DNA of 9,490 nt from an uncultured Gammaproteobacteria bacterium (GCA_964507075.1 CAZDOL010000019.1:1-9490), one strand, 5' to 3'; shown: positions 3,079 to 6,913, numbered from the stretch's first letter. Program-made: numbers and translations. The notes: generated by a model from the letters alone, not told the origin.

Positions 3079-3828
3079 TTAATTCCGTTTGGAAAATAAC
3101 TTCGAAAACCAGCCGAACAAACTAAATCCTTGCCTTTCGTCTGTAATTTCTTTTTCTATTTCAGAACTTACTTGCTTCATAACTTCAATTTGCTGAGTTA
3201 ATATTTCTCTATCTGTTTCATTCTCTAACCCATCTTTCACAACCTCTAATTCTTCTATTTTTTCTTGATGCTTGGTTAGTTTTTCTTCTGCTATATTTAA
3301 ATTAGAATTATCAGATCCGACTAAAAATTTAACAAAACCTTTTCGTTCTTGAGCCTGATTCAATGCAGTATCGGCTTCCTCTTGGATTTGATTTTGGACT
3401 CTAGCAATTTCTCTAATTTGAGTACCAACGCCTTCATTTCTTTCTGCAACTTGCAACATTTCTTGAACAGAATTAGCTACTTTACTGCGCCTGGCAACTG
3501 CTTGCTCACTTGGCTCATGACTTATTCCTTTTTTGACTTTTTCTCCATCAACTTCTTGGATAAATCCCTGTTTTTTTTGCCCCAAAACTTCATCATTTTC
3601 CACTTCTAACAAAACGCTCTCTTCGACCCTACGATCTTGAGTTCCGGTACCTTGAATTCTTTTTTCTATCCCAACCTCTTCTAATGGAACTTCTTGATCA
3701 AATTCCATTGTTTCTATATTCTGCTGATCACGAGTCCTTGCTTGCTCTTCTGCTCTTGCTTGAATTGAGCTAATGGGGAAAAGCGTTAAGACTAAAAGTG
3801 TGATTAAAATGAGTCTCAAATGTTTCAT
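3079..3828 (-). CDS. Secreted acidic coiled-coil protein, function unknown
   Basis: 249 aa. N-terminal signal peptide MKHLRLILITLLVLTLFPISSIQARA. The remainder is E/Q/K-rich and looks helical or coiled-coil. No catalytic motif recognised. Confidence 0.7.
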   Translation of the reverse strand: MKHLRLILITLLVLTLFPISSIQARAEEQARTRDQQNIETMEFDQEVPLEEVGIEKRIQGTGTQDRRVEESVLLEVENDEVLGQKKQGFIQEVDGEKVKKGISHEPSEQAVARRSKVANSVQEMLQVAERNEGVGTQIREIARVQNQIQEEADTALNQAQERKGFVKFLVGSDNSNLNIAEEKLTKHQEKIEELEVVKDGLENETDREILTQQIEVMKQVSSEIEKEITDERQGFSLFGWFSKLFSKRN

Positions 3829-3940: not shown

Positions 3941-4978
3941 TTAAGTATTTCGAACGAGCTTCTGTAATCTTTTTTTCAACTTATGACTTTTGCAATGTTT
4001 AAGCATCCCGTAATACGATTGCATTGATTGATCAAAAAAATCCCTTGAAACCAATCCTTGATTCAATTTTATTTTGTTTTCCTTAATTTTACTAAACATT
4101 TTCTTTTTACTTTTGGTCCGAAGCGTTATATAATAAGGCAAGACAACATAGCCCAGGAAATCAATTCCCTGACTAAACTTTTTGATTTCAACTTTTTGTG
4201 GATGAAGTTCTAAATCCAGCTTCTTGTTTAAAAAATCTTTAATCAAGACAACAAGGCATTCAAGGTATTTTTGGTCTTGACTAACAATGGCAAAATCATC
4301 AGCATATCTAAAATAATACTTAATCTTTAATTGTTTTTTAACAAACCAATCAAATTTATCTAAAAATATATTTGCAAAAATTTGTGAGGTTAAATTGCCA
4401 ATCGGCAAACCTCTCTCTTTTGAAAAACCATCCATATCATTTACGGAAAAACTTGATATAATCTGTTGAATTAACCACAAAAATCTACGATCATGTATTC
4501 TGTTTTTTATCATATCAAAAAGTTTTCGATGAGAAATGCTATGAAAAAATTTCTTAATATCACCCTTTAAAACATAAGCCGTTTGAGTATAGTTCTGGCT
4601 CACTTTCCTCAAAACATTGGATAAGTTTTTAACCGCCAAATGAGTGCCTTTATTATCTCTGGATGAATAGGAATGATAAATAAAAATAGGGTTAAATGTT
4701 CTATACAATTCTTTAAAAACAATGTGATGAATTAATCTGTCTTTAACTTCGGCTTTATCAATTATTCTGTGTTTAGGGTCGTAAATATGAAACCTGACAT
4801 AAGGCTCGTGCCTATAGGTTAAATCATATAATTCGGAATGAAGTTTAAAAATATTGTCTTCCAAATGCCGTTCAAATTCCATTACATCATATTTTTTAGA
4901 TTTACCATTTTTGAATTCGTCCCAACAAAGCAAAATATTTTCCAAACTAATTAAATTATCATAAATATTATGGAACAT
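3941..4978 (-). CDS. DGR reverse transcriptase
   Basis: 345 aa. Contains the DGR-diagnostic motif 4 GLPIGNLTSQIFANIFL (I/LGxxxSQ rather than the group II intron type), YxDD box FRYADDFAIV, and a conserved N-terminus ENILLCWDEFKNGKSKK. Its short length leaves no room for an endonuclease domain and I recognised none. Confidence 0.95.
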   Translation of the reverse strand: MFHNIYDNLISLENILLCWDEFKNGKSKKYDVMEFERHLEDNIFKLHSELYDLTYRHEPYVRFHIYDPKHRIIDKAEVKDRLIHHIVFKELYRTFNPIFIYHSYSSRDNKGTHLAVKNLSNVLRKVSQNYTQTAYVLKGDIKKFFHSISHRKLFDMIKNRIHDRRFLWLIQQIISSFSVNDMDGFSKERGLPIGNLTSQIFANIFLDKFDWFVKKQLKIKYYFRYADDFAIVSQDQKYLECLVVLIKDFLNKKLDLELHPQKVEIKKFSQGIDFLGYVVLPYYITLRTKSKKKMFSKIKENKIKLNQGLVSRDFFDQSMQSYYGMLKHCKSHKLKKRLQKLVRNT

Positions 4979-5320
4979 AAAAATAACGATATCCCAATAA
5001 TTAAAAATTTATACGAGCTATATAAAATATACTATAGTTATTCTACTCTATTTCCCAAAAAAGACAGATATACTTTAGGAGCTAAATGTGAAATGTATAT
5101 TATCGCCACGCTCGAACTCCTACTGGAAGCTAGTTGTGCTTATAGAGAAGAAAAACTGGAATTAATAAAAAAAGCCAACGCCAAGTTTGATACTTTAAAA
5201 CTGTTTGTTCGTCTTTTAAAAGATTTAAAAATCATTGACACTAAAAAATACATTGAACTGCAAGGAAGAATCCAGGAGATCGGCAAAATGCTGGGAGGGT
5301 GGCAAAGATCTCTGGGTTAA
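4970..5320 (+). CDS. avd: Avd-like accessory variability determinant (four-helix-bundle protein, 23S rRNA intervening-sequence protein family)
   Basis: 116 aa, helical and basic. The N-terminal pattern IPIIKNLYELYKIYYSYSTLFPKKDRYTLG matches the family consensus (FPkxexYsLg). It lies next to the DGR RT and TR. It is on the opposite strand to the rest of the element. Confidence 0.85.
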   Translation: MEHKNNDIPIIKNLYELYKIYYSYSTLFPKKDRYTLGAKCEMYIIATLELLLEASCAYREEKLELIKKANAKFDTLKLFVRLLKDLKIIDTKKYIELQGRIQEIGKMLGGWQRSLG

Positions 5321-5326
5321 GCAATA

Positions 5327-5357
5327 AATAAAGACCTCTTTAAACGAGATCTTTATT
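5327..5357. terminator. Imperfect hairpin between the convergent avd 3' end and the TR 3' flank (candidate bidirectional terminator)
   Basis: aataaagacctc (5327-5338), loop tttaaac, gagatctttatt (5346-5357). This gives 11 of 12 pairs with one C/A mismatch. It starts 7 nt after the avd stop at 5318-5320. It is AT-rich and therefore weak. Confidence 0.4.
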
Positions 5358-5389
5358 GATATAGACCTGTCTACCAGTAAGTAGGCGCA

Positions 5390-5510
5390 ACCCGAGGAAG
5401 ACGAGCCCGCCCGAATAGTTGTCATAAGCGTTAGCCAAATCGTCCGTGTTGTCGAAGTCAAGCTTGTCGTCGTTAGCTTTGAAGTTGAGCGAAGAGCCAG
5501 AGGACTGCCA
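5390..5510 (-). repeat. DGR template repeat (TR)
   Basis: Ungapped 120-121 nt match to 5920-6040. At all 14 mismatches this copy carries A on the minus strand. It is non-coding in the VR frame, with a stop just upstream. In the VR frame it carries five AAC codons. Confidence 0.93.
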
Positions 5511-5810
5511 GAAATTTGTCTTTTCCCATCTTTATCCACTGGGAAAATAGCTCGAAAAGTAATATTTCCCCTGTATTTTATTCGGCTCCTACCCGCCAGA
5601 GGCGGGTGTGCCTTGGCGCAAACCTTAGAAAAAGACAAGTAGTGCCTAAATTCTCGCATACTCTCCTATGGTCCAAATTTAAACCATAAAATTCTGATGC
5701 GTTGGTAGAAATCTAGAGTTTCGGCGAACCGTTATCCCCACCCGCCAACAAGCAGGACATGAGACCGGTTACATTAACCTACTCCTGTTCTCATTCTATC
5801 ATACTTCACA

Positions 5811-5844
5811 AAGAAAAACTAGGTGCAACGTTGTCGCACCTAGT
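5811..5844 (-). terminator. Rho-independent terminator of the DGR target gene
   Basis: 9-bp stem actaggtgc (5818-5826) pairs with gcacctagt (5836-5844), loop aacgttgtc. On the minus strand it is followed by TTTTCTT. It lies about 75 nt past the stop at 5918-5920. A T-run also follows on the plus strand. Confidence 0.65.
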
Positions 5845-5917
5845 GTTTTTCAAAAATGACCAAGAACCAAAATTCCTAGTCCAAAGACCAAGAAGACAAA
5901 AGACCAAATTCCTTCCA

Positions 5918-6805
5918 CTACCCGAGGAAGACGAGCCCGCCCGAACAGCTGACATAAGCGCAAGCCAAATCGTCCGTGAAGTCGAAGGCAAGCAAGTCGT
6001 CGAGAGCTTTGAAGTAGAGCGAAGAGCCAGAGGACCGCCATTGTAAAGCTGCTAAATCCAAGCCCGAGGTATTCCAATCTCGAGCAAGAATGTCGGGATA
6101 CATCACCATAGCAATGGCAGTATCCATACCTGAAAGGATAAATCCTTCTGGTAATGTTGACATTTGCTTTCTGTCGGCGTTGACAGAGAACCCTTGTAAA
6201 GGATTCGGGAAATGAAGTCCGATAACAGGACCTTCTTTCATTCGCTCAATGAGCTGGTCATGGCGGGCCCCATCAACAATGCTGACATTATTAGCCAGAG
6301 TGCCTTGGCGATAATTATTGAAACTCCGATGATCAAAGGCCTTGCCATAACTTTCCTTAACTCCTGCCAGATACAGTTCCATTTCGGCACCAAGATCATT
6401 ATTCACAATCTTGGGCATAATCACTGGCAGATAGACGCCTTTAGCGATATTGGCGATCTGAGGATTACCATTGACGATAGCCAACAGACGTTCGGTTTCG
6501 GACTTGAGCTGTTCGGCAGTTACGCCTGTGTCAATGCCGAGACATCCGTGAAGTCTCAAAATGCGATTGGCGAAATCCACGTCCTTCTTCAGTTTGGGCT
6601 GAATAAGGTGAAAATCTTTGTCTGGGTCACAAACGTTAGTTTGTAGTCCCTTAGGAATTCGGCGACCGCGTTTGTCAAAGAGTATTTTGACAATATCTTC
6701 AAATTTAACTGAAACCTCACCTCTCAATAATTTTTTTGCGTTCTCTTCTCCGATGATGTTAAGGAGCGCTTCATCTTGCCCTCTAGTCCAATCTGCGTAT
6801 TTCAT
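5918..6805 (-). CDS. DGR variable (target) protein of unrecognised family with a C-terminal VR
   Basis: 295 aa ORF preceded by a strong SD (AGGAGG). The last 40 codons (WRSSGSSLYFKALDDLLAFDFTDDLACAYVSCSGGLVFLG*) are the VR. No signal peptide or TM helix is visible. I recognise no N-terminal domain. Confidence 0.9.
   Translation of the reverse strand: MKYADWTRGQDEALLNIIGEENAKKLLRGEVSVKFEDIVKILFDKRGRRIPKGLQTNVCDPDKDFHLIQPKLKKDVDFANRILRLHGCLGIDTGVTAEQLKSETERLLAIVNGNPQIANIAKGVYLPVIMPKIVNNDLGAEMELYLAGVKESYGKAFDHRSFNNYRQGTLANNVSIVDGARHDQLIERMKEGPVIGLHFPNPLQGFSVNADRKQMSTLPEGFILSGMDTAIAMVMYPDILARDWNTSGLDLAALQWRSSGSSLYFKALDDLLAFDFTDDLACAYVSCSGGLVFLG
5920..6040 (-). repeat. DGR variable repeat (VR)
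   Basis: Copy of the TR at the 3' end of the target ORF. It has 14 substitutions, all at TR-adenine positions. Homology ends exactly at the stop codon. Confidence 0.93.
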
Positions 6806-6809
6806 GTGT

Positions 6810-6815
6810 CCTCCT
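6810..6815 (-). promoter_or_regulatory. Shine-Dalgarno site of the target gene
   Basis: The minus strand reads aaAGGAGGacacATG. The perfect AGGAGG sits 4 nt upstream of the ATG at 6805-6803. Confidence 0.75.
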
Positions 6816-6913
6816 TTTCAGGCTAAAAGCCCGAAAAATATTTTTTTCCTCTGCCTGAGGATTGGGATCTTTCCGGAGTTGGAAAGATATGTTTAATATA
6901 TCAAATTTTTACC

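Follow-up and report, generated by a model that had tools for sequence, protein, structure and literature searches.

A recently active diversity-generating retroelement of the Patescibacteria group with a candidate permuted template RNA

Does the pair of direct repeats at positions 5390-5510 and 5920-6040 of a contig deposited as an uncultured Gammaproteobacteria bacterium (GCA_964507075.1 CAZDOL010000019.1:1-9490) record template-directed mutagenesis by a neighboring reverse transcriptase (RT), and if so, from where would copying of the template be primed? The whole 9,490-nt stretch, hereafter referred to as the window, was analyzed with these questions in mind, together with related loci and the protein families encoded on it. 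The repeats belong to a diversity-generating retroelement (DGR) that is genuine, recently active and part of a known Patescibacteria group, and we are highly confident that the region 3941-6805 as a whole constitutes a chromosomal DGR of the Patescibacteria (Candidate Phyla Radiation, CPR) type. The second question receives a more guarded answer: that the DGR RNA of this Patescibacteria clade is permuted and primed ~250 nt upstream of the 3' end of the template, with an RT that in part of the clade is phase-switched by (GA/CT)n slippage, is a proposal that we judge to have an even chance of being correct.

A repeat finder returned 5390-5510 and 5920-6040 as the sole long repeat of the window, an ungapped 121-nt direct repeat of 88% identity. 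A preliminary description of this DNA had reported a 120/121-nt pair with 14 mismatches, all on adenines of one copy, and base-by-base comparison reproduced its list exactly (5416, 5419, 5422, 5431, 5432, 5449, 5450, 5458, 5464, 5465, 5473, 5474, 5486 and 5506). At all 14 positions the 5390-5510 copy, designated the template repeat (TR), carries T on the plus strand, that is, A on the minus strand. The TR contains 26 minus-strand adenines, 14 of which are changed in the other copy, the variable repeat (VR), while 0 of the 95 other positions differ; the adenine counts, and the substitutions from TR to VR on the minus strand (A>T in eight cases, A>G in four and A>C in two), agree with those given earlier. 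The hypergeometric probability of all 14 mismatches landing on the 26 adenines is 1.3e-11. As had also been claimed, the VR forms the last 40 codons (256-295) of the target open reading frame (ORF) 5918..6805(-), the product of which ends in ...WRSSGSSLYFKALDDLLAFDFTDDLACAYVSCSGGLVFLG, and five AAC codons appear in the TR when it is read in the VR frame. The final 26 nt of the TR are GC-rich and devoid of adenine, resembling an IMH* (initiation of mutagenic homing) element; beyond the end of the repeat the VR runs on AGUGG (stop codon TAG) and the TR UGCGC, so that the pair displays the IMH/IMH*-type 3' boundary of DGRs. The difference between TAG in the VR and TTG in the TR is preserved in at least 14 relatives, at the position adjoining an RNA helix (alpha) that is described below.

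A second natural allele of the element is available. Over the 6,462 nt that L143, a contig from a different metagenome, has in common with the window, the two sequences differ at just 18 positions, each of them within the VR (window 5946-6036) and at a TR-adenine site, and the TR is identical; within L143 itself, 17 of 17 TR/VR mismatches fall on TR adenines. The target protein encoded on L143 (P0002) is the closest database neighbor of the window target, being identical over residues 1-255 with differences confined to the VR. Diversification has therefore occurred in nature, and since the allele switch took place on an otherwise 100% identical 6.4-kb background, it must have been very recent. 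The two sequences form a clean natural before/after pair; the proposed route is adenine-mutagenic cDNA synthesis on the TR RNA by RT and the accessory protein Avd, with retrohoming. The preliminary description had suggested a population test on reads; change restricted to the VR at TR adenines, with an invariant TR, was indeed found, on two assembled alleles (window and L143) rather than on reads.

The TR had been described as non-coding. A 144-aa ORF (5225..5659, -) that is called by gene finders and in public assemblies spans the TR and the adjoining RNA module, but it obtained no family match in the library scan, and the open frames that cross the TR in relatives vary widely in length, are short in several and are not conserved. 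On these two grounds the ORF was rejected as a real gene; it is probably a spurious call, and the TR is effectively non-coding, with the called ORF as a caveat to the earlier statement.

The protein components point to the same element. The RT gene shares its strand with the TR and is 412 nt away from it, and its product matches RVT_1 (1.7e-25) and phrog_1423 (1.4e-107) with conserved IGNLTSQIFAN and YADD motifs, the signature of DGR-clade RTs being [LIV]GxxxSQ. Avd, an accessory protein of most though not all DGRs, is represented by a protein that matches PF22296 (6e-18), NCBIfam DivGenRetAVD (83.5 bits, the cutoff being 80) and phrog_3206, annotated in PHROGs as 'Avd protein of DGR'. The adjacent RT and Avd, the location of the VR at the 3' end of the target gene, its usual site in DGRs, and the L143 alleles jointly support the original assignment of the repeats as a DGR TR/VR pair. 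Two other classes of retroelement were considered and rejected: a retron, with NF038233 scoring 60 bits against a cutoff of 235 and no msr/msd match in Rfam, and a group II intron, with TIGR04416 scoring 154 bits against a cutoff of 300 and no Rfam group II match. The element is flanked by cellular genes, namely those for a MacB/FtsX ABC exporter, an LD-carboxypeptidase, MscS and a histidine kinase, which makes it chromosomal; a search of the window for tRNA and tmRNA genes found none.

DGRs of CPR bacteria form a separate clade with non-canonical order and orientation of avd and TR (PMC5758913), and their targets lack transmembrane or recognisable domains (PMC8144416). The element resembles the CPR/Patescibacteria DGRs (the 'CPR set' of Wu et al. 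2018; DGR clade 2 of Roux et al. 2021) in host, avd/TR arrangement and domain-less target, and as no difference in gene content or architecture separates it from that group, it is a member of it, with an arrangement that appears to correspond to architecture B3 of Wu et al. 2018. Considered as a DGR alone the element adds little, CPR bacteria being already known to be rich in this gene order and in domain-less targets. Several metagenome-assembled genomes (MAGs) with the cassette, among them L012, L017, L026, L027 and L029, are labelled 'uncultured Gammaproteobacteria' or 'Candidatus Saccharibacteria'. The loci shown are of low GC content and the cassette was seen in no loci from other phyla; these labels are probably automatic and unreliable.

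The sequence between the VR and the TR bears on the question of priming. Alignment of 13 loci from the end of the VR to the avd stop codon revealed a G.U-rich hairpin, the target terminator, an extended -10-like box and then ~270 nt of conserved sequence reaching to the TR (Table 1). A profile of this ~270-nt segment matches 62 loci, among them DGRs that have unrelated targets and an RT of the same clade. On alignment A4, an unbiased MAFFT alignment of 32 non-redundant sequences, RNAalifold predicts among others two long-range helices, alpha (5642-5651 with 5379-5388) and beta (5627-5638 with 5516-5527), through which a single uninterrupted upstream strand base-pairs with the TR flank on either side, its two segments lying 3 nt apart. 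Counted over pairs, 89.7% of alignment cells are paired, as against 72.5% in shuffles (0/500 reach the observed value) and 41-53% with slid partners, and compensatory changes on both sides occur in 59 of the 68 RNA pairs. For helix alpha 92.9% of cells are paired and 8 of 9 pairs compensatory; for helix beta the figures are 98.2% and 10 of 12. A covariance model of the core (R1) matches 79 of 97 sequences (the window and 96 related RT-bearing loci). Each of the 79 has a single match, invariably on the strand of the RT gene and 5' of it, at a distance that is typically 0.5-0.7 kb. Found as it is upstream of loci with differing targets, the module tracks the RT clade and not the target.

Structured RNAs beside bacterial RT genes have been catalogued as the Rfam motifs RT-1 to RT-19 (Weinberg et al. 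2017; PMC5737381), at least one of which belongs to a DGR, RT-10 being located between TR and brt in BPP-1 (PMC5737381). Unlike these, the window matches no Rfam 15 family anywhere along its length even at E <= 1, and RT-10 and the other curated motifs were accordingly rejected as identities of the module. No description of a 5' RNA module was found in the searched literature, including the CPR DGR papers PMC5758913 and PMC8144416.

The closest parallel is provided by the ribonucleoprotein of the Bordetella phage BPP-1. There the TR forms a loop enclosed by a template:primer duplex (TR117-129 with positions 47-56 of the spacer, Sp, the priming nucleotide being A56) and an adjacent 'cPRT Stop' duplex (an upstream avd segment with Sp59-70), with 2 nt between the duplexes on Sp; Sp continues with a short stem-loop, unpaired adenosines, a single-stranded 'Thumb Ring' and a long RT-binding stem-loop, and an Avd-binding stem-loop directly follows the TR (bioRxiv 10.1101/2023.10.23.563531). 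The element shares with this prototype (mtd-avd-TR-brt) an adenine-specific TR/VR pair, a C-terminal VR, an RT with a protein of the pentameric-Avd type and an adenine-free, GC-rich 3' end of the repeat. In its predicted RNA, too, the TR forms a loop between neighboring duplexes that share a contiguous strand and are joined by a 3-nt linker, and the order along that strand is that of BPP-1: alpha, 3 nt, beta, a short hairpin, the A-rich single strand AUAAAAUACAG and P6, a putative RT-binding stem-loop, with a 12-bp stem-loop right after the TR flank. Unlike in BPP-1, where Sp lies 3' of the TR, the strand 5627-5651 sits 116-141 nt 5' of the start of the TR, and only ~10 nt and a terminator stem-loop follow the TR. 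The systems also differ in that the window target is cellular and apparently cytoplasmic, with no detectable Mtd/C-type lectin signature, and in that the element is chromosomal, in a Patescibacterium, instead of being carried by a phage. By analogy with BPP-1, the Bordetella 'spacer' module may be present here 5' of the TR, as a circular permutation.

Under such an arrangement, a minus-strand RNA starting at ~5784 would comprise the structured 5' module, the 121-nt TR (5510-5390), a 10-nt 3' flank and the terminator stem-loop. RT (3941-4978) and Avd (4970-5320) would reverse-transcribe the TR, misincorporating at template adenines, and the cDNA would replace the homologous VR (6040-5920), so that up to 26 positions in the last 40 target codons could be rewritten. 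Helix alpha would act as the template:primer duplex, the 2'-OH around C5642/U5641 priming cDNA in cis from the last homologous base (5390), and helix beta as the stop duplex that ends the cDNA just past the 5' end of the TR. VR/TR homology ends (at 5390) 2 nt from helix alpha and the TAG/TTG difference is retained, which argues that the cDNA-derived tract stops where helix alpha begins. The msr-msd RNA of retrons is self-primed from an internal 2'-OH, with a duplex bringing template and primer strands together. The self-priming envisaged here, positioned by a duplex, would resemble that of retrons, but unlike theirs its product would home into the VR and not accumulate as msDNA (multicopy single-stranded DNA). 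If correct, the covarying RNA suggests that the largest environmental DGR clade retains the Bordetella primer/stop architecture in permuted form, that the module would escape searches for 'Sp' downstream of the TR, and that the compact design of ~460 nt (module, template and terminator) could be offered for engineering.

Several observations weigh against this interpretation, or against parts of it. The case for permutation rests on element order and geometry rather than on demonstrated homology. The window's own helix alpha is weak, with 6/7 bp forming, and in the minimum free energy (MFE) fold of the window the TR 3' flank GCGCCUACUU pairs instead over 8 bp with the 5' box GAGUAGGU (5772-5784). 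A C-type lectin (or Ig-like) scaffold for the VR is typical of DGRs, though not strictly defining; a C-type lectin fold could not be demonstrated from the target model, the VR region of which has a predicted local distance difference test (pLDDT) score below 50. Finally, the exact VR allele of the window is present on at least 20 contigs from several sequencing runs, which indicates that switching is episodic and not continuous. The competing pairing of GCGCCUACUU/GAGUAGGU type amounts to 5 bp only in relatives, and in L045, one relative checked by eye, a change is compensated in helix alpha and not in the 5'-box pairing; this pairing may be an alternative conformer. The 5' box and the upstream strand of helix alpha have UAGG(C/U) in common.

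The best surviving alternative accepts an active DGR but treats the 5' RNA as a leader, a stability element, an Avd/RT-loading element or a regulatory element, with priming, as in the Bordetella system, from sequence 3' of the TR. The primer could come, for example, from transcription running on into antisense-avd sequence, the function of the module is assigned by analogy only, and the weak helix alpha of the window and its competing pairing fit this possibility. Handa et al. moreover described putative stem-loops and upstream/downstream duplexes in many DGRs, including those of CPR, in the 40 nt before and the 100 nt after each TR (bioRxiv 10.1101/2023.10.23.563531); a survey of that span would have missed the 5' module. 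Against this alternative, both TR flanks covary with one contiguous upstream strand, which is the two-duplex geometry of Bordetella; downstream of the TR, a terminator-like stem-loop and the stop codon of the convergent avd follow after only ~10 nt; and the core module, present in 79 of 97 RT-bearing sequences, follows the RT clade. We consider this alternative as a whole possible but rather doubtful.

Table 1. Features of the DGR locus in the window, with the evidence for each.
Feature	Coordinates	Strand	Evidence and remarks
Reverse transcriptase, 345 aa, intact	3941..4978	-	RVT_1, phrog_1423, IGNLTSQ and YADD motifs
avd accessory gene, 116 aa, antisense to TR, RT and target	4970..5320	+	PF22296, DivGenRetAVD, phrog_3206
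12-bp stem-loop and U-run after TR, abutting avd stop codon	5327..5357	-	11/12 pairs compensatory
Helix alpha 3' strand GCGCCUACUU	5379..5388	-	Begins 2 nt past end of VR/TR homology
Template repeat (TR)	5390..5510	-	Repeat finder and base comparison; 26 adenines; identical in L143
Helix beta 3' strand GGGAAAAGACAA	5516..5527	-	Ends 6 nt upstream of TR
Short hairpin, single-stranded AUAAAAUACAG (conserved), stem-loop P6, conserved GUG box	5528..5623	-	Alignment and covariance model
Helix beta 5' strand UUGUCUUUUUCU	5627..5638	-	Pairs with TR 5' flank; proposed stop-duplex strand; in window MFE fold
3-nt linker UAC	5639-5641	-	Between helix alpha and helix beta 5' strands
Helix alpha 5' strand AUUUAGGCAC	5642..5651	-	RNAalifold; pairs with TR 3' flank; proposed primer-strand analogue
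5' domain of DGR RNA	5657..5784	-	Conserved box GAGUAGGUUAAUG, hairpin P1, UCGCCGAAA, P2/P3
Extended -10-like box TGaTAGAAT, just upstream of RNA 5' end	5793..5801	-	TGATAAAAT/TGGTATAAT block conserved in alignment A5
Intrinsic terminator of target gene, 12-bp stem and U-run	5818..5844	-	9/12 pairs compensatory on alignment A5
G.U-rich hairpin ~40 nt downstream of VR	5858..5881	-	Conserved in relatives; alignment A5: 92% of cells paired, 3 compensatory pairs
Variable repeat (VR), last 40 target codons	5920..6040	-	Repeat and base comparison; L143 allele differences
Target (variable-protein) gene, 295 aa	5918..6805	-	VR at its 3' end; family widespread in Patescibacteria

Some of the features in Table 1 invite functional interpretation. 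The stem-loop after the TR is a terminator of the TR RNA and may also be the analogue of the stem-loop that binds Avd in Bordetella. The G.U-rich hairpin downstream of the VR may be a counterpart of the target-recognition hairpin of Bordetella or else part of the terminator, and the extended -10-like box is a putative promoter of the TR-containing RNA, which a consensus promoter scan of the window did not pick up. P2/P3 of the 5' domain are missing in some relatives. Four short-read contigs with an identical target gene (L002-L005) all end at window position ~5625 (region ~5585-5625), which borders a hairpin insertion of 39 nt in the RNA module, an insertion present only in the window, L013 and a few others; the common end is probably due to an indel polymorphism or an assembly break.

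The target protein is predicted to have neither a signal peptide nor a transmembrane segment. Searches against Pfam, NCBIfam, PADLOC, PHROGs and the PDB with a sequence profile returned no match, nor did a repeat of the Pfam search at E <= 10 with 25 family members. An AlphaFold2 model (mean pLDDT 72) yielded no PDB or BFVD match at E < 0.5 with Foldseek, a search made with a VR region of pLDDT below 50. Its sequence features are those of an apparently cytoplasmic protein. A word-indexed search placed at least 215 clusters (90% identity) in the family at 58-72% identity, and an exhaustive search, with clustering at 50% identity, gave 549; those members that carry a name belong to the Patescibacteria (Portnoy-, Falkow-, Uhr-, Doudna- and Parcubacteria). 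Conservation is strong along the body of the protein, with a C-terminal pattern W.S...SL.F.A....L.F..T..LA.A....SGGLLFLG, and the variable C-terminal positions across the family are the codons templated by TR adenines. This conserved, cytoplasmic-looking family bears on what it is that CPR DGRs diversify.

All 57 genome loci of the target family come from Patescibacteria-type MAGs, and at least 13 of them share the order target-VR, spacer, TR, antisense avd and RT, with adenine-biased TR/VR mismatches. In some relatives two tandem or flanking target paralogues stand beside one TR (L034:4310-8307, L048:6001-8120), forming multi-target DGRs. About two-thirds of the full-length target loci have no DGR part within 6 kb. 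Diversified-looking C-termini occur among targets that have no TR, avd or RT within that distance (L007, L008, L012, L015, L025-L027, L029, L032, L035, L036, L038, L042, L043, L046, L049, L052, L053 and L060), and one of these loci, L060, keeps a remnant of the RNA 5' module. The DGR-less target loci could reflect trans-acting DGRs or repeated loss of the DGR.

Among the RT genes of relatives, a (GA)n or (CT)n tract (n = 5-16) interrupts the ORF in 17 of 82 distinct genes of the clade, some of them having G10-12 or C12 (for instance L013:8395-8425, L018, L020, L047:8395-8440, L050 and L065). The tract is located between IISSFS and GLPIGNLTSQ, equivalent to ~4405-4440(-) in the window, and 8 or 9 of the 17 genes are out of frame at it. 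The RT genes of L050 and L065 align with 0 mismatches and a single 4-nt gap, such that (CT)16 is out of frame and (CT)14 in frame, and the window RT has only AAAAGAGAGAGG at this site, in frame. From its sequence, the tract looks like slipped-strand phase variation of the DGR reverse transcriptase in relatives, which would be a simple way of keeping the mutator off in most cells. We found no literature linking DGRs to repeat-mediated phase variation, and no account of the tract in the CPR DGR papers cited above.

These frame-shifted RT genes, the many target homologues without a nearby DGR and the recurrence of one VR allele on at least 20 contigs from different runs would all suit a DGR that is now an inactive relic in this lineage, its VR differences recording past activity. 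We regard this as very unlikely, given that the window RT is complete at 345 aa with catalytic YADD and IGNLTSQ motifs, that the window keeps avd, the TR and every RNA helix intact, and that the allele switch seen in L143 is very recent. As for a plain duplication whose copies drifted apart through point mutation or partial gene conversion, with no reverse transcription involved, a direct repeat that is 88% identical might in principle originate in this way, but the adenine statistics (14 of 14 differences on one base of one copy, p = 1.3e-11) and L143 (18 differing sites, all TR adenines, and zero elsewhere in 6.4 kb) exclude it, RT and Avd adjoin the repeats and the pattern recurs in at least 13 related loci, leaving this explanation with practically no credibility.

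Further observations concern the composition and surroundings of the DGR. The ATG starts of avd (+) and RT (-) overlap divergently by 9 nt within a perfect palindrome, ATTATGgaaCATAAT (window 4967-4981), and the closest relatives keep an identical overlap; each promoter must lie within the other gene. The target gene has a GC content of 0.44-0.46 against ~0.31 in its surroundings (window 5100-6900), and a third-position GC content (GC3) of 0.42 against 0.20-0.31. This excess recurs in 47 of 50 loci (L006-L060; median +0.11), both with and without a neighboring DGR; RT and avd stand at or below the flanking level. Off-target adenine mutagenesis was rejected as its cause, A and T both being depleted. 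Directly downstream of RT, and co-linear in L001 and L143 as well, lies the gene of a 249-aa protein (3079-3828, -) whose N-terminus resembles a signal peptide and which has a long acidic region rich in Q and E; no family matches this protein, and nothing was found to indicate that it belongs to the DGR. Elsewhere in the window, a 68-aa, extremely lysine-rich protein (2101-2307, -) with KKPV/KKVTKK repeats (MAGKKVTKKPVRKAIKKAVKKPVAKKK...) resembles a histone-H1-like DNA-binding protein and explains the 12-42-nt periodic repeats D2-D5.

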